Shown piece after piece: positions 44,941-51,971 of a stretch of 64,000 nucleotides of DNA (its first letter is position 1; each line of letters starts with the position of its first letter). Origin of the DNA: Candidatus Fervidifonticultor secundus (GTDB taxonomy: Bacteria; Sysuimicrobiota; Sysuimicrobiia; Sysuimicrobiales; Humicultoraceae); the NCBI GenBank assembly GCA_031459385.1, contig JAVKIP010000001.1, positions 96,001 through 160,000 of the forward strand, given 5' to 3'. The translations under genes were made by a program, and so were the position numbers. A model generated the notes under the pieces. The model was not told the DNA's origin and made no database searches. It saw only the letters and a list, made by a program, of their open reading frames with translations.

Positions 44941-45255
44941 CTACACGATCTGGTGCTCCTCGGCGAACATCGCGCCGGACTCGGCGCAGAAGTTCGTCAG
45001 GTCGATCATCACCTCGCGGCCAGCGGGCGTGGCGAGCGCGGCTGTGAAGGCCTCCTGCGAGTCGAAGTGCAGCTCCGCGATCCCCTGGACCAGCGGCTCG
45101 CCTCGCGGGGCGCCGGTGACGACGTTGACGGTGTAGCGCCGTAGCCCCTGGAGCCGCTCACGCACCAGCGGCGCGTGCACGTCGAGCCAGTAGCGCTTGA
45201 ACTGCTCGGGGCTCTGCCCGCTCTTGCCGCGCAGCCAGACCAGGACCTTGAACAC
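44941..45255 (-). CDS. EthD family protein
   Basis: F.RYW...HAPL, GIAELHFDS, D..NF; GTG 45255 after GGGAGGT. Confidence 0.82.
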   Translation of the reverse strand: MFKVLVWLRGKSGQSPEQFKRYWLDVHAPLVRERLQGLRRYTVNVVTGAPRGEPLVQGIAELHFDSQEAFTAALATPAGREVMIDLTNFCAESGAMFAEEHQIV

Positions 45256-45278
45256 CGCGCACCTCCCGTCCCGCCGGC

Positions 45279-46094
45279 TCAGGCCGGCGCCTTGCCACGC
45301 ATCTCGGCCACTGCGGCCGCGCCCATGACGTGGAAGCCGCTGTCCACGAACAGCGTGTTGCCGGTGACCGAGCGCGCCAGATCGCTGGCCAGGAAGACCG
45401 CCGCGTCGCCGACGTCCTCCTGCGAGATGTTGCGTCGCAGCGGCGCCACCTCCTCGACGACGTCGCGGAAGGCCGTGATGCCTCTGACGGCACTGGCGGC
45501 CAGGGTGCGTAGCGGGCCGGCAGAGATGGCGTTGACGCGGATGTTCGCCGGCCCCAGTTCGGCGGCCAGGTAGCGCACCTCGCACTCGAGGGCCGCCTTG
45601 GCGATCGCCATGACCCCGTAGGAGGGCACCACCGCCTCCACGGCGTTGTACGTCAGGGTCAGGATGGTCCCGCCCCCTGCGGCTTCCAGCAGTCCCCGTG
45701 CGGCGCCGGCCACGCGGAGCAGCGAGTAGGCGCTGATCTCCAGGGCCTGCGCGTAGCCCTGGCGCGAGATCTGGGTGAACGGCCGCGCCAGCTCCTCGCG
45801 TCCGGCGAACGCCAGGCAGTGGACCAGCACGTCGAGGGCGCCCCACTGCGCGGCCAGGCCTGCGAAGACCGCGTCGATCTGCTGGTCGCTCTGGACGTCG
45901 CAGGGGAAGATGGGGAACCGCTCTGCGCCGCCCAGTTCGGTGAGCAGCTCGACCAGGTTCTCCTTGAGCCGGTCGCTCTGGTAGGTGAACGCCAGCTGGG
46001 CGCCCTCGCGGTGGAACGCCCGGGCGATACCCCAGGCGATACTGCGCTTGTTGGCGACCCCCATGATCAGGGCCCGTTTGCCGTGCAGGAGCAC
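45279..46094 (-). CDS. fabI: Enoyl-ACP reductase
   Basis: GVANKRSIAWGIA, Y.VM..AKAALE, RVNAISAGPLRTLAA. Confidence 0.93.
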   Translation of the reverse strand: MLLHGKRALIMGVANKRSIAWGIARAFHREGAQLAFTYQSDRLKENLVELLTELGGAERFPIFPCDVQSDQQIDAVFAGLAAQWGALDVLVHCLAFAGREELARPFTQISRQGYAQALEISAYSLLRVAGAARGLLEAAGGGTILTLTYNAVEAVVPSYGVMAIAKAALECEVRYLAAELGPANIRVNAISAGPLRTLAASAVRGITAFRDVVEEVAPLRRNISQEDVGDAAVFLASDLARSVTGNTLFVDSGFHVMGAAAVAEMRGKAPA

Positions 46095-46291
46095 AGGACA
46101 CCTCGCCTCGTGGGGTGCAGACCGGGTTATCGGCTTCGGGATCGCCGGGCAGCGTCCCTCTCCAGTCTCGCCGCAGGTCTCGCGCGACGCGCGGGAGGAA
46201 GCCTCGGGCAGGCGGCGCGCCTGCGGTCGTGCCGGATGGTCCGCAGCCGCGCTCCGTCAACGCAGACGCGGCCTGCGGCGCGGGCGGCAGG

Positions 46292-46873
46292 CTACTTGTC
46301 GTACCACCGCCTGAGCCAGTCCCGCAGCATCGCGGCTTCCCGGCTCTCGGTCTGGACGATCTGCTGGGCCATGGCCCGCACCTCGGGGCGCGAGGCCTTG
46401 GTCACCGCCAGCCTGGCCAGGGCCACGCTGCCCTCCAGGTGGGCAGCGATCATCGGCAGGTAGACCTTCTCCAGGGCCGCGCCTTTCAGGCCGCGCACCT
46501 TCTTGACCGGCTCGGTCACGACGTTGGCGTTGCGCCGGCCGGGCGCGGCGCCAGCCGCCTGCAGCCAGTCCAGCATCTGCCGCACCTGACCGCTCTTGCG
46601 GTCGATCATGACCTGGTTCCACTGCAGCAGCTCGGGGTGGTCCGCGTTCAACGTCGCGGCCAGGGCGATCTCGATCGCCTCTTCGTGGACCGGGATCAGC
46701 TCGCGCATGAAGGCCACGTCGAACGTCGAGCCGTTGAGCTTCGACAGGGCCGCCACGGCGGGGTGAGGCGCGGTCCTGGCGGCGGTGGGCGCCGGGGCGG
46801 TTGCGGCCGGATGGGCGGGCGGGACCACGGCGAGGACGAGGGCGATGGCGAGGAACAGGCCGGTCACGCGCAT
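46292..46873 (-). CDS. DUF305 family exported ferritin-like protein
   Basis: Signal peptide; two repeats (FD..F...LIP.H..A and Y...MI.H..G...LA), I...E..E. Confidence 0.75.
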   Translation of the reverse strand: MRVTGLFLAIALVLAVVPPAHPAATAPAPTAARTAPHPAVAALSKLNGSTFDVAFMRELIPVHEEAIEIALAATLNADHPELLQWNQVMIDRKSGQVRQMLDWLQAAGAAPGRRNANVVTEPVKKVRGLKGAALEKVYLPMIAAHLEGSVALARLAVTKASRPEVRAMAQQIVQTESREAAMLRDWLRRWYDK

Positions 46874-47051
46874 GGCACACCTCACAGGAGAGAGTCACCC
46901 GCCCCCCCGGCAAGGCGGCAGTGCCGTCTGACTGTGTACCCACCTGGGCCGCTGCTTAGGCCAGTGCGGGGCCGGCACGACCGCGGCCCGGCGCGTGCGC
47001 GGGCCGACACGCCGACCCCAGGCGCCGCTGCCCCGATCCGTTGCGTGGCGG

Positions 47052-47891
47052 TTACTTCTCGATCGGCACGTTCACCAGGCTGCCGTACTCGGTCCACGAG
47101 CCGTCGTAGTTGCGCACGCGGGGATAGCCCAGCAGCTCCCGCAACACGAACCATGTGTGCGACGAGCGCTCGCCGATGCGGCAGTAGGCGATGACCTCTT
47201 TGTCGGGTGTGATGCCCTGACTCTCGTAGAGCGCGCGCAGCTCCTCGGGCGCCTTGAAGGTCCCGTCTTCGCGGAGCGCCATGCCCCAGGGGACGTTCTT
47301 CGCACCGGGGATGTGCCCGCCGCGCTGGGCGCCTTCCTGCGGCAGGTTCTCGGGCGCCAGCAGTTCGCCTGCGTATTCCTTCGGCGAGCGCACGTCCACC
47401 AGGCCGTGCCCTGGCTGGCCGACGCGCTGGAGCACGTAGTCGCGCAGGGCCCGGATCTCGGTGTCGGGCACTGCGGCGCGGTACCGGGTGCGCGGGTAGG
47501 CCGGCACCTCCCGCACGAGCGGCCGACCTTCGTCGCTCCACTTCTTGCGCCCGCCGTTCATGATCCGCACGTCGCCGTGCCCGTAGTACCGAAAGATCCA
47601 GTAGGCCCACGCAGCGAACCAGTTGTTGTTGTCGCCGTAGAAGACCACGGTGTGGTCGTTGCCCACCCCGGCCTCGCCCAACAGGGTCTCGAACTGAGCC
47701 TGCGACGGCAAATCGCGCCGCAGGGGGTCGGCCAGGTCGACTTTCCAGTCCAGGTTGAGCGCGCCGGGGATGTGCCCCTGCGCGTAGACCTCGCGGTCCA
47801 CCGAGACCTCGACGATGCGCAGGCCCGGATCGCGCAGGTGCTCGGCGACCCACCCGGTCTCCACCAGCACATCAGGCTTGGCGTATCCCAT
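47052..47891 (-). CDS. Tandem-domain rhodanese/thiosulfate sulfurtransferase
   Basis: GHIPGA twice, active site [18 protein letters not shown]. Confidence 0.94.
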
Positions 47892-48215: not shown

Positions 48216-49229
48216 CTATGCCGTCACGGGAGATGCGATGACCCCGAGCCGCCTCTCGAGGAAGTCCGCAAACACGGCGTAGGGATCGAAGCCCACGACC
48301 CGACGGGCGTCGGTCACGAAATTGGACAGCACGTTGATGTCGTAGTAGTACCGGCGACCGTCGCGCTGGCTCACCAGGTACTCGATCCCGCCAACATCCA
48401 GCCGGGCCGCCGCGGCGATCTGCTGCACCTCGTCGAGCACCTGCGCCGGCGGCCGGTAGCCCTCGACGCGCAGGTTGGTCTTCGGCAGGTCTACCGGGCA
48501 GAGGTCCACCGCCGACTTGGCGGTCTGTGGCGGTGCCGCCGGCGCCCCCGTCCCGTCGGTCTGGCAGATGTCGGCCGGGCAGAGGTTGAACCCCGCCCCG
48601 GGATCCGGGAAGACCTTGATGGCGTACAGGAACCGGCCGTCGAGCACCTCGACCCGCACGATGTGCCCGTCCGCCGGCGCATGGTACTCCTGCACGAGGG
48701 CCACTCGGTCGATGCCCAGGTCGAGTGTCCCCGCCCGCGCAGCGGCGTCCAGGTCCTCCCAGCGGTCGAAGCGGCGGATCCCGGCGCCGCTTCCGCCGAT
48801 GTTGGGCTTCACCAGCACGGGGACGGCGAGTTCGCGGGCGGCGGCAGCGGCCTGTCGGGCGGTATTCACCACCCGGGTGCGGGGATGCGGCAGGCCCAGC
48901 CGCGCCAGCAAGGCCACCTGCGCGGCCTTGGAGAGTTCCAGGGCGAACGCCGCCGCCCCGTTCACCACCGGGACTCCCACGGACTCCAGCCACTGCAGGT
49001 AGGCGAGGGACGCGAAGATCGCGTGGCCGTGGCCCCGCACGTAGGCCGAGGGGCTCATGCGGTTGACGACGAGGTCGTAGGGCGCCCGCCGGTCGGCCGG
49101 GTCGAACGCCAGGTCTGCGGCGTGAATCCGCGCATACGGCACGCCCCGGCGGTCGAGCTCCGCGAAGAGCGGCACGAACCATTCGGGGTGTTCGTAGAGA
49201 ATGCCCAGTCGCGGCCAGGTGGTGCTCAT
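48216..49229 (-). CDS. ATP-grasp ligase (RimK/glutathione synthetase-like)
   Basis: KPNIGGSGAGI, LVQEY, GGIEY, YYDIN.LSNF. Confidence 0.85.
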   Translation of the reverse strand: MSTTWPRLGILYEHPEWFVPLFAELDRRGVPYARIHAADLAFDPADRRAPYDLVVNRMSPSAYVRGHGHAIFASLAYLQWLESVGVPVVNGAAAFALELSKAAQVALLARLGLPHPRTRVVNTARQAAAAARELAVPVLVKPNIGGSGAGIRRFDRWEDLDAAARAGTLDLGIDRVALVQEYHAPADGHIVRVEVLDGRFLYAIKVFPDPGAGFNLCPADICQTDGTGAPAAPPQTAKSAVDLCPVDLPKTNLRVEGYRPPAQVLDEVQQIAAAARLDVGGIEYLVSQRDGRRYYYDINVLSNFVTDARRVVGFDPYAVFADFLERRLGVIASPVTA

Positions 49230-49322
49230 CGCTGTCCTCCCTCATCGGCGGGCGCCCGGCGGCCGGTAAGGCCAGGTGCGCCCGCAGCGCACGTCGTGCT
49301 CGAGGTGTGTGGTGACTTCGGT

Positions 49323-49424
49323 CTACGCCGGGTGAGCAGGCGAAGGCCTGGGAGCCTTCGCCCGAGGACAGATGCAGTCCCGAGGGAGGGGGAGGTGTCG
49401 TGCGTCCTGCCACGTCGCTCGCAT
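49323..49424 (-). CDS. Putative Cys-containing leader peptide MRATWQDARHLPLPRDCICPRAKAPRPSPAHPA
   Basis: ATG 11 nt downstream of a -10 box; shares PR[DE]CICP and a hairpin with 50661..50738. Confidence 0.6.
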   Translation of the reverse strand: MRATWQDARHLPLPRDCICPRAKAPRPSPAHPA

Positions 49425-49435
49425 GTTTGCTGCTG

Positions 49436-49464
49436 ATCCTAGCACACCGGCTGCCTCCGCGCAA
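49436..49464 (-). promoter_or_regulatory. SigA-type promoter for the leader/ATP-grasp operon
   Basis: TTGCGC-17 nt-TAGGAT with extended TG. Confidence 0.6.
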
Positions 49465-49556
49465 TCCACGCGCGGAGTGCGGAGTATAGAAGGGAGTCCA
49501 TCTCCCGTCTCCGTCACATCCGAGGGAACGGCACAGGCAGGCGCGAACCCTGGGGC

Positions 49557-50576
49557 GTGGACCGACGGTGGCTGCGCCTCGCGGCGTGGGGGGCCGGAAT
49601 CCTCGTCGTCTGGTGGGGCCTCGGGCAGTTGCGGGTGCTCACCGGCACGGCGGTGGTGGTCCTCATCATCACCTTCCCGATCTACCCGCTGGTGGACTGG
49701 CTGGAGCGCCGGGGCCTGGGACGCGCCGCAGCGGCTGCCCTGGTGCTGCTGGCAGTGCTGGCCGGGCTGGCCCTCGGCCTGGCCGTGATCATCCCCTGGA
49801 TCGTCGATCAGGTGCACGTGCTGATCCGCATCGCGCCGTCCGGGATCCGGGCGGTTACCGACCTGCTGGCGCGCTGGCAGATGCAGGTCGCTGAGCCGAC
49901 CTTCCCCGCGTTGCTGCGGACGGCCTGGGAGCGCGCCGGCGAGACCGCGGTCAGCGCGGCCAACGGCCTGGCGTCGCGTCTGGTGAACACCGTGGTGGGC
50001 TGGCTGGGCCAGCTCTACCTGGTGCTGCTGCTGCCCTTCATCATCTACTTCGTCCTGCTCGACTACCGGCGGGTGCGCGACGCCGGGCTGCGGCTGCTGC
50101 CGGCGGACGCGCGTCCGCGGGTCGAGGGGCTGCTCGAGACGCTGACGCGCACCCTGCGCTGGGGGCTGTGGGCGCAGGTCGTGGTGAGCGCTGTCGTGGG
50201 CGGGCTGACAGCCGTGGGGCTCGCGCTGGCCGGCGTGCCGGGCCCGCTCGCCATCGGACTGTTCGCCGGGGTGGCCGAGGCGGTCCCCTACATCGGCGGG
50301 TTCGCCACGTACGCCGTGGCCCTGCTGGCGGCGATCCCGCAGGGCGGCGCTGCCTGGATGTGGGCCGTGGTGGTGGTCACCGCGGTGAAGCTGCTCTCCA
50401 ACGTGCTGGTGCCCCTCGTGCTGGGGAAGTTCACGCAGACCCACCCGCTGGCCATCATCGCGGCGCTCCTGGCCCTGGGGCAGCTCTTCGGCCTGGTGGG
50501 CATGTTCTTCGCCGTGCCGGTGGTGGTCATCATCCGGGAGGTGCTGGCGTGGTGGCAGGCCGCGCGGGCGACCTGA
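49557..50576 (+). CDS. AI-2E family transporter
   Basis: PLVDWLERRG, VPYIGG, HPLAII.ALL....FGLVGMFFAVP. Confidence 0.88.
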   Translation: MDRRWLRLAAWGAGILVVWWGLGQLRVLTGTAVVVLIITFPIYPLVDWLERRGLGRAAAAALVLLAVLAGLALGLAVIIPWIVDQVHVLIRIAPSGIRAVTDLLARWQMQVAEPTFPALLRTAWERAGETAVSAANGLASRLVNTVVGWLGQLYLVLLLPFIIYFVLLDYRRVRDAGLRLLPADARPRVEGLLETLTRTLRWGLWAQVVVSAVVGGLTAVGLALAGVPGPLAIGLFAGVAEAVPYIGGFATYAVALLAAIPQGGAAWMWAVVVVTAVKLLSNVLVPLVLGKFTQTHPLAIIAALLALGQLFGLVGMFFAVPVVVIIREVLAWWQAARAT

Positions 50577-50660
50577 GCCGCGCGACGCCCCCTTGCGGCA
50601 GGGCGGGCCATGTGGTAGGTACGAGGTAACCGCCGTGCCGGCGGTCTGCGAGGTTCGCCG

Positions 50661-50738
50661 ATGAGCAGGGCGAGAGCCAGCCGCTGGAACGCCGCGAGTC
50701 GTCCGCGCGAGTGCATCTGTCCGTCGCGAAGGCGATAG
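50661..50738 (+). CDS. Putative Cys-containing leader peptide MSRARASRWNAASRPRECICPSRRR
   Basis: GAGGT RBS; PRECICP; stop codon inside a 9-bp hairpin; homologous to 49323..49424. Confidence 0.6.
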   Translation: MSRARASRWNAASRPRECICPSRRR

Positions 50739-50864
50739 CCTTCGCGTTCCCCGCGTAGTCCAGTCATCTGCTGCTTTACTGCCGGGTCGGGGTGCCCGGA
50801 GGTGTGCACCGGTTCCGGGCGTGTCCGGCCCCTGGTGCCGAGAGGACGCCGGAGGTGGCGTGCG

Positions 50865-51971
50865 ATGGAGAAGCGTCGTGACCTGCAGGTGCCTGTCGCC
50901 GGTGCCGACCCCTCGTGCTGCCCGCCGGACGATGCGGAGGTGGTCAGCGACGGCTTCATGCCGCGGCGCGCGTTCCTGGCCAGGCTGTCGCAGGTTGGGC
51001 TGGCCGCGGCCGGGTGGGCCTGGCTGGCCGACCGCCCCGCGGCGGCGCAGGGCCGGCGGCGCGTGCGGCTGGCGTTCTGCAGTCAACTGCTCTGCATCAT
51101 TCCCTACGAGGTCGCCCGGCGGCAGGGCTACTACGCAGAGGAGGGTCTCGATGTCGAGCTCGTGTACTTCCGGGGCGGCAGCGCGGCCATACAGGCGCTG
51201 GTGGGCGGCGCGGTCGAGTACGCAGCCACGTCGTTCGACGTGGTGCTGGCTGCGGCGAGCCGCGGCGCCGACGTGGTGCGCTTCTTCACCACGGGCCGGC
51301 TGCCGCTGTTCGCCCTGGCCGTCGCGCCGCACGCGGCAGAGGCGGTGCGCGGGCTGCCGGACCTGCGCGGGCGCACGGTCGGCGTCTCCGCGCTTGGCAA
51401 CGCTGACCACCTGCTGGCTGGCTACCTGCTCCAGCGCGCGGGCGTGCGGCCGACGGCGGTGCAGTTCGCCGTGCTCGGGCCCAACCTCTTCGAGGCGCTG
51501 CGCGCCGGGCACGTCGACGCCGGCATGGTGCAGGAGCCCGCGGCCACGCTGCTGGAGCAGCGTGGCGGGCGCGTGCTCGTCAACCTCATGGATCTGGCGC
51601 AGGCCCGGCGCTACCTGGGCGGGCCGTACGAGTTCATGGGGGTCGCCGTGCGCGCGCCCGAGTGGCAGGAGCGGCAGGCCGAGATGCGGGCGCTGGCGCG
51701 GGCGCTGGAGCGCGCGCTGCGGTTCATCCACTACGGCACGCCGCGGCTGGTGATCGACGCGCTGCCGGCCGAACTGATCGCGGGCGGCGACCGCGCGCTG
51801 CTGGAGCAGGTGCTGGCCCGGCACCGGCGGTCGCTCTACCCGCAGGATGGTCGCATCGACCTGGCCGCGGCGCGCCGGGTCGTCGCCGTGCAGCAGCAGG
51901 CCGGGGCGCCTGTAGCCGCAGACCTCGCGCGGCTGCTCAACCCGGCCATCGCGGGGGCGGCCAGCCCGTGA
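50865..51971 (+). CDS. NitT/TauT/SsuA-family ABC substrate-binding protein with Tat signal
   Basis: PRRAFL Tat motif, EEGLDVELV..RGG, DLRGRTVGV, VDAGMVQEP. Confidence 0.87.
   Translation: MEKRRDLQVPVAGADPSCCPPDDAEVVSDGFMPRRAFLARLSQVGLAAAGWAWLADRPAAAQGRRRVRLAFCSQLLCIIPYEVARRQGYYAEEGLDVELVYFRGGSAAIQALVGGAVEYAATSFDVVLAAASRGADVVRFFTTGRLPLFALAVAPHAAEAVRGLPDLRGRTVGVSALGNADHLLAGYLLQRAGVRPTAVQFAVLGPNLFEALRAGHVDAGMVQEPAATLLEQRGGRVLVNLMDLAQARRYLGGPYEFMGVAVRAPEWQERQAEMRALARALERALRFIHYGTPRLVIDALPAELIAGGDRALLEQVLARHRRSLYPQDGRIDLAAARRVVAVQQQAGAPVAADLARLLNPAIAGAASP

Follow-up and report, generated by a model that had tools for sequence, protein, structure and literature searches.

The window examined here, i.e. 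the whole stretch of 64,000 nucleotides (nt) from contig JAVKIP010000001.1 of Candidatus (Ca.) Fervidifonticultor secundus (positions 96,001 to 160,000), contains on its minus strand a short open reading frame (ORF), leader A, in front of a gene for an ATP-grasp protein. Cysteine codons of this leader are complementary to the ribosome-binding site (RBS) of the ATP-grasp gene, for which they could act as an anti-Shine-Dalgarno (anti-SD) sequence, and a second leader of the same kind, copy B, is present on the plus strand. Leader A and its target comprise the following features, listed as the minus strand is read.

49436..49444, minus strand: extended -10-like motif TGCTAGGAT, 11 nt 5' of the leader A start codon
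49323..49424, minus strand: leader ORF A (ATG 49424-49422, stop TAG 49325-49323; 33 codons plus stop)
49382..49390, minus strand: second anti-SD segment CCCUCCCUC, over Pro-Leu-Pro codons; in the minimum free energy (MFE) fold, the predicted main partner of the SD at this locus
49368..49376, minus strand: Cys-Ile-Cys codons TGC ATC TGT, the presumed stalling site
49364..49374, minus strand: anti-RBS segment CAU-CUGUCCUC, opposite GAGGACAG..AUG; helix conserved in orthologues
49337..49364, minus strand: GC-rich hairpin directly 3' of the Cys codons, arms GGGCGAAGGC and GCCUUCGCC; 12 pairs in the MFE fold
Minus strand: RBS-side partner of CUGUCCUC and CCCUCCCUC, i.e. GAGGGAGGACAG
49227..49243, minus strand: RBS and start codon of the ATP-grasp gene, GAGGGAGGACAGCGAUG; start backed by orthologous N-termini
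48216..49229, minus strand: ATP-grasp gene, RimK/LysX-like; all NCBIfam hits below cut-off

Translation of the minus strand gives leader A a peptide core of Pro-Arg-Asp-Cys-Ile-Cys-Pro-Arg. The original prediction, which was made from the sequence, placed CAU-CUGUCCUC opposite the RBS and start codon of the ATP-grasp gene with 8 contiguous base pairs plus 3, and both the coordinates and the letters were confirmed on this strand. CUGUCCUC (49371-49364) is fully complementary to GAGGACAG (49239-49232), CAU (49374-49372) complements the AUG start (49229-49227) and a 2-nt bulge lies between the two. Further upstream in the leader, CCCUCCCUC (49390-49382) complements GAGGGAGG (49243-49236). The ATP-grasp product itself exceeded curated cut-offs for the Pfam LysX pre-ATP-grasp domain and, marginally, for CPSase_L_D2.

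The position of the -10-like motif, 11 nt from the leader ATG, would leave a very short 5' untranslated region (UTR). In 23 of 27 leaders of the ATP-grasp type, a TGnTAnnnT motif was detected 6-22 nt 5' of an in-frame ATG, and this spacing suggests a 5' UTR that is very short but not necessarily absent. A scan with the strict sigma-70 consensus returned no promoter sites. No terminator-like sites were detected in 49150-50950 and, as had been read from the sequence originally, neither hairpin A nor hairpin B is followed by a U-tract, their tails being C-rich. As no intrinsic terminator separates leader from gene, leader A does not have the form of a classical ribosome-mediated transcription attenuator.

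Conservation of the pairing was assessed in related loci carrying the leader. The set contained 95 loci, or 91 after removal of four exact duplicates; L039 (identical to L018) was left out, and L073 (where the contig ends), L111 (in which the pattern was not found) and a truncated second match in L005 were not counted. In most orthologous ATP-grasp leaders, the sequence UGCAUCUGUCCYC (i.e. Cys-Ile-Cys and the next codon) complements the RBS/start region, and RNAalifold applied to 10 long ATP-grasp leaders predicted the UCUGUCCYC:RBS helix unprompted, besides the hairpin. In a 13-sequence alignment, 95.5% of helix cells were paired as compared to 50-60% when the partners were slid, and one helix pair covaries (C-G in 7, U-A in 2 and U-G in 1). 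Of the 27 distinct ATP-grasp leaders, 13 have retained 8 or more Watson-Crick pairs (11/15 long, 2/12 short), as compared to 3/64 leaders of other types (Fisher p = 3.4e-6), indicating that the complementarity does recur in orthologous leaders of this gene. Types were assigned by pattern, such that one ATP-grasp orthologue (L030; 6 Watson-Crick pairs, or 8 with G-U) and two DUF4395-type loci (L019 and L028) were classed as 'other'.

The register of the pairing varies by lineage. Some leaders pair UGCAUCUG with CAGAUGCA over the start codon, and in short-leader orthologues (L013, L074 and L094) GAGGACA(G) has shifted onto the AUG and codons 2-4. Outside the ATP-grasp type, the SsuA-like gene of another genus (L054) has 9 Watson-Crick pairs over its AUG. 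The stretch from hairpin to RBS is not conserved in ATP-grasp leaders; the RBS keeps its ACAGAU-type complementarity while the remaining leader sequence diverges. In ATP-grasp loci of Myxococcota, Chloroflexota and Acidobacteriota, both the leader and the GGAC[AG]G motif were absent (10/10). Two genomes (L024 1718-1942 and L029) carry an ATP-grasp-type leader in front of a protein of ~72-75 amino acids (aa) without a family match, in place of the ATP-grasp gene.

The consequences of a stalled ribosome for RBS accessibility were simulated by holding a 28-nt footprint single-stranded at one leader codon after another. Accessibility was read as the unpaired probability from SD to AUG and a rise of at least 0.15 was scored as opening. 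A footprint on the Cys codons opened the RBS in 11/15 long ATP-grasp leaders and 1/12 short ones. For leader A, the RBS unpaired probability increased from 0.39 to 0.60 under the mask, with a peak when the first Cys codon (Cys1) occupied the A site, and that of the SD alone increased from 0.24 to 0.57-0.60. The RBS of leader A is thus not predicted to be accessible regardless of its leader. A ribosome with Cys1 in the A site has a footprint of about 49391-49364, which covers both CUGUCCUC and CCCUCCCUC. The ability of CCCUCCCUC to pair at the RBS, also part of the original prediction, was borne out by an SD pairing probability of 0.88. The leading role given there to CUGUCCUC was upheld in part: its conservation in orthologues supports it, but in the predicted ensemble of the window CCCUCCCUC is the main partner and the CUGUCCUC:GAGGACAG helix has a probability of 0.01.

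Leader A is one of four copies of a leader family in the window's genome. A covariance model, R1, was built from three of these copies and matched 53/61 and 78/94 genomes of the phylum in two tallies, both of which include the unpublished genomes G010 and G019, with 1-4 copies in each matched genome, the genomes all belonging to one order. Named relatives are metagenome-assembled genomes labelled Armatimonadota or Ca. Fervidifonticultor, the latter being placed in Ca. Sysuimicrobiota by the NCBI taxonomy. R1 had no matches in 5 outgroup genomes or in 151 genomes from the phylum of a Chloroflexia metagenome-assembled genome. Rfam (release 15) gave no match at the gathering threshold in the whole window, with two chance-level matches (E 0.27 and 0.89) falling far below it. 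The third copy lies on contig 11 of the window's genome (G000; L003 1501-1541), 5' of a gene for a 179-aa protein without a Pfam or NCBIfam match. The fourth, in which the first Cys codon is TGT, is on the minus strand of contig 4 (L089; G000:C4:2439-2501), 5' of a DUF4395 gene.

The family has a coding signature. An in-frame ATG lies 8-26 codons upstream in 79/91 loci as compared to 5/91 and 2/91 in the other frames, and stop codons are concentrated at two places, with 34 loci ending at codons +7 to +9 and 44 at +15 to +17. The Pro codon is CCG in 49, CCC in 25, CCT in 16 and CCA in 1 of the 91 loci, and the Arg codon is CGG in 34, CGC in 33, CGA in 18 and CGT in 6, such that positions 1 and 2 are fixed whilst the third varies freely. 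Invariance of Pro-Arg is inflated, as later loci were picked with the model and a pattern containing CCNCG; Pro-Arg was kept in 33/33 first matches, which were chosen without this pattern. The Cys-Ile-Cys codons are nearly invariant at the nucleotide level (TGC in 84 and TGT in 7, ATC in 90 and ATT in 1, and TGT in all 91). TGT accounts for 412 of 3630 Cys codons (about 11%) in the crude gene set of the genome, and both tRNA-Cys genes have the anticodon GCA. The invariant second-Cys TGT could reflect selection either for a slower, wobble-read codon or for RNA pairing. Conservation of the leader peptide does not extend to its N-terminal part or its tail. From this signature, the family leader is probably a translated ORF.

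Constraint at the amino-acid level raises a rival possibility, in which Pro-Arg-x-Cys-Ile-Cys is an arrest peptide that stalls the ribosome on a small molecule or redox state and not on the supply of Cys-tRNA, the cysteines mattering as amino acids. As this model would expect, every locus examined (33/33 of the first set) retains Pro and Arg while the third codon positions vary, and there are known arrest peptides whose stalling frees an SD (ermCL, discussed in 10.1101/834739). The near-invariance of TGC-ATC-TGT, including the rare TGT, points instead to selection at the level of RNA or decoding, the remainder of the peptide is unconserved and part of the Pro-Arg invariance derives from the CCNCG-based choice of loci, making an arrest peptide an improbable account of these leaders.

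The hairpin directly following the Cys codons is conserved throughout the family. In 33 members, 90.2% of cells were paired, the outermost pair was G-C in 24 and C-G in 7, and the covariation score was reached by 0/500 shuffles. The 3' arm is retained even in leaders whose stop codon falls in the loop, and the hairpin is thus selected as RNA. This selection of the 3' arm speaks for a non-coding motif, such as a riboswitch or protein-binding site, within which the ORF would be incidental. Such a motif is very hard to reconcile with the three-base periodicity of conservation, the in-frame ATG and the clustered stops, and no further conserved structure or Rfam family match was found to accompany it. 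In ATP-grasp leaders, conserved structure was limited to one hairpin and one long-range helix, with no multi-helix aptamer.

Genes downstream of family leaders encode rhodanese, DUF4395, TusA, ThiF, Sulf_transp, sulfite reductase and Cys/Met pyridoxal phosphate enzyme products, together with SsuA-like and family-5 binding proteins and ATP-grasp proteins. The association with sulfite reductase derives from L008 (in the unpublished G019) and L009 (in G012). In the window, the ATP-grasp gene is followed on the minus strand by a two-domain rhodanese gene (47052-47891) similar to 3-mercaptopyruvate sulfurtransferase, and the presence of the leader before this ATP-grasp/rhodanese operon implies a role in cysteine or sulfur metabolism. 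The operon stretch 44941-47891, also on the minus strand, contains the rhodanese gene and then a further downstream ORF with an EthD domain.

Leader and hairpin are common to gene types without Cys-codon:RBS complementarity, for which some other common output must exist. The output might therefore be transcriptional throughout, with the position of the ribosome on the leader deciding whether Rho or the U-less GC hairpin ends transcription and with RBS complementarity being secondary. Many loci are rich in C and poor in G past the hairpin, and terminator-less candidate Cys leader peptides in Actinobacteria have been suggested in an earlier study to be Rho-dependent (PMC1262725). Arguing against a transcriptional output are the lack of any terminator-like site in 49150-50950 and the location of stop codons in the hairpin loop or shortly after it, as translation up to these stops would unfold the hairpin under either condition. 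The conserved ACAGAU-type complementarity of ATP-grasp genes, and its absence from outgroup RBSs, would also be left unexplained. We consider this alternative unlikely, although it is the strongest of those weighed here.

A further candidate for a common output was that the hairpin 3' arm serves as a specific anti-SD for the other gene types. This was not supported: the duplex energy of the arm with the cognate RBS was no better than background (median percentile 0.5-0.9) and only 2/26 DUF4395 loci were at or below 0.05. Some leaders have additional elements. DUF4395- and rhodanese-type leaders (L011, L012, L014, L020, L025, L028, L031 and others) contain a second conserved pyrimidine-rich element, about GUCUCCGC, located ~60-75 nt past the Cys codons and complementary to the hairpin 5' arm and to SD-like sequences. 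Some RBSs (GGCGGAGGUG) are near-copies of the hairpin 5' arm, and the combination of the element with this likeness suggests a putative multi-segment switch. Sulfite-reductase and rhodanese leaders (L008, L009 and L016) have a second hairpin whose 5' arm repeats that of the first, such that the first 3' arm could pair with either.

The interpretation we favour, at a probability of roughly 60%, is that leader A is a cysteine-responsive, ribosome-mediated translational attenuator within a phylum-wide cis-regulatory family located before sulfur-assimilation genes. The leader ORF, probably near-leaderless, encodes an invariant Pro-Arg-x-Cys-Ile-Cys, and a stable hairpin comes immediately after it. 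With Cys-tRNA in ample supply, the leader would be read fast, the freed leader RNA would pair with the RBS and the ATP-grasp operon would be poorly translated. When Cys-tRNA is scarce, the ribosome would pause as a Cys codon occupies its A site, and the paused footprint (about 49391-49364) would hide both anti-SD segments, leaving the RBS exposed and the operon translated. The hairpin may serve as a structural clamp beside the long-range helix, as a pause enhancer at the ribosome entrance, or as both.

Several observations weigh against this attenuator. Only two Cys codons are present and these are non-consecutive, and a pure codon-starvation sensor has no need of strictly conserved Pro-Arg. 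In the predicted ensemble of the window, the SD is paired with CCCUCCCUC and hardly at all with the conserved segment, as given above. No clear opening occurred under the mask in 4/15 long and 11/12 short ATP-grasp leaders, and masks over the hairpin reduced RBS access in several non-ATP-grasp types, for which the scan covered 22/64 loci. DUF4395, cytoplasmic rhodanese, copy B and most other types have the same leader but no Cys-codon:RBS complementarity, meaning that this helix is not the common output of the family. Both-side changes occur in only 1/9 helix pairs and the column-shuffle control was not exceeded; there is little covariation, the leader side being held constant by its coding role and its columns hardly varying. 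As the orthologues are kin, their counts and the Fisher p overstate independence. The whole-leader fold of A has a z of -1.19, with 24/200 shuffles folding equally well, and that of B has a z of -0.95, both being uninformative. Finally, the cognate core-RBS duplex energy lies at the 44th percentile of 1163 RBS windows and was equalled by 26% of 500 shuffled RBS windows.

The genome background for these comparisons consisted of 1163 crude RBS windows set against the 14-nt leader core. At least 8 contiguous Watson-Crick pairs with the core were reached by 6/1163 windows (0.5%), the ATP-grasp gene being among them. As 21% of background windows matched the window's own run when G-U was allowed, Watson-Crick runs were used for counts. 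From its own genome alone, the leader A pairing is borderline, i.e. only weakly above chance, and the case that it exceeds chance comes from comparison of orthologous sequences. The pairing could be a by-product of composition, as a pyrimidine-rich Pro/Leu/Cys-coding leader in a GC-rich genome would match any strong GGAGG-type SD without having a regulatory role here. The duplex-energy percentile, the shuffles and five unrelated genes that also reach at least 8 Watson-Crick pairs with the core are as this explanation would predict. Conservation of the pairing despite a diverged intervening leader, the shifted site in short leaders and the lack of the RBS motif where the leader is lacking are not, and we give a compositional origin little credence.

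Four of these five genes were identified, encoding an HD hydrolase, a PALP enzyme, an enoyl-CoA hydratase and a phosphoenolpyruvate mutase. Action of the leader in trans on other complementary RBSs was considered and rejected: three of the four identified genes are unrelated to sulfur and the fourth is the PALP enzyme, of unresolved subfamily, and the matches were taken as background. The PALP-family gene (L113; G000:C1:343141-344193) lacks a leader of its own, and its RBS, GGGAGGACAGAGCC, can form 9 Watson-Crick pairs with the leader core. This match was treated as chance; the PALP family includes cysteine synthases and a trans effect is possible.

The two divergent leaders are separated by a gene for an AI-2E family transporter (49557-50576, plus strand). 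Copy B begins ~85 nt past the transporter stop codon and may be transcribed from its own promoter or by read-through. Its features are as follows.

50661..50738, plus strand: leader ORF B (25 codons; core Pro-Arg-Glu-Cys-Ile-Cys-Pro-Ser; stop TAG in the hairpin loop)
50712-50720, plus strand: Cys-Ile-Cys codons of copy B
50725..50746, plus strand: copy B hairpin, CGCGAAGGC / GCCUUCGCG, loop GAUA
50852..50867, plus strand: RBS GGAGGUGG and start ATG (50865-50867) of an SsuA-like binding-protein gene; no supported pairing with leader B

A weaker pairing of copy B with the RBS of the binding-protein gene had been proposed and was rejected. The matches are short and interrupted, with a longest run of 4 Watson-Crick pairs (6 with G-U) that was equalled by 65% of background RBS windows and a duplex energy that was equalled by 60% of shuffles. 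RBS accessibility remained at 0.28-0.32 whichever leader codon was masked, and in the predicted fold the SD (50852-50861) is paired with 50873-50884, in its own coding start region. Same-genus orthologues of copy B (L005 and L006) were also negative for pairing. The earlier proposal that a stalled ribosome frees the RBS thus stands, as a prediction from folding and conservation, for leader A and fails for copy B, whose RBS is predicted to be independent of its leader.

A wider view is possible, although we hold it doubtful. Pro-Arg-x-Cys-Ile-Cys, the invariant rare UGU and the entrance hairpin may together form a portable, phylum-specific pausing sensor that is wired to different outputs in different operons, using direct anti-RBS masking for ATP-grasp, some rhodanese and some SsuA-like genes and some other route for DUF4395, sulfite reductase and further genes. 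With the nascent peptide aiding the pause, such a sensor might coordinate all of sulfur assimilation in Ca. Sysuimicrobiota, no dedicated transcription factor being needed.

In the main texts of the literature on this phylum or on Armatimonadota (supplements aside), no description of the leader family was found, and Rfam gave no match. The leaders mark what appears to be a sulfur regulon, comprising sulfite reductase, thiosulfate uptake, rhodaneses, TusA, ThiF, sulfonate-type transporters and the ATP-grasp ligase, and hint at a function of the ATP-grasp/rhodanese operon in the metabolism of cysteine or sulfur. The covariance model can be used for annotating Ca. Sysuimicrobiota genomes. Within the family, one sensor occurs naturally both with and without direct RBS pairing, a potential test bed for how pausing is converted into control.

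In the trp, his and leu leaders, regulatory codons of a leader peptide report the charging of one tRNA. Leader A differs from these attenuators in having no U-tract terminator and no terminator/antiterminator pair, and its output appears to be RBS access. In ermC, an antibiotic signal acts with the nascent peptide and the switch consists of two alternative hairpins. The likely signal for the present leaders is the supply of Cys-tRNA and, in the ATP-grasp type, the stalled ribosome is proposed to mask the anti-SD directly. The likeness to ermCL/ermC, as described in 10.1101/834739, is that a ribosome stalled on a leader rearranges mRNA pairing and the downstream SD becomes accessible. Seliverstov et al. 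(2005; PMC1262725) reported candidate Cys leader peptides 5' of cys/cbs operons in Mycobacterium, P. acnes and B. longum. These resemble the present family in being short ORFs before cysteine genes, with Cys codons near the end and no obvious terminator, but differ in having runs of Cys codons, no conserved hairpin found and a distribution in Actinobacteria only.

The closest parallel is with the mycobacterial polycysteine leaderless short ORFs (sORFs). Cys codons of M. smegmatis Ms5788A pair with the SD region, as confirmed with compensatory mutants (Canestrari et al., 10.1101/834739), and masking of the RBS of the next gene by leader Cys codons has so far been demonstrated only in mycobacteria. 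Both systems have a short first-cistron ORF before a sulfur/cysteine operon and Cys codons that pair with the next SD; in both, a ribosome paused for Cys-tRNA is proposed to free the SD, and several loci per genome share the sensor (a 'ribulon'). The mycobacterial search criterion of at least 2 consecutive Cys codons (10.1101/834739) places the present family outside that set by those authors' own definition, as Cys-Ile-Cys has two non-adjacent Cys codons in 91/91 loci. The family belongs to a different phylum and may be unrelated to the mycobacterial leaders, R1 having been run against the 5 outgroup genomes and the 151 genomes of another phylum and not against Actinomycetota. Its distinguishing features are an invariant peptide core, an adjoining conserved GC hairpin and alignability across an uncultured candidate phylum of hot springs and soil, in leaders known here from their sequence, with a Cys-codon:RBS helix that is confined to some gene types and found mainly with ATP-grasp genes.

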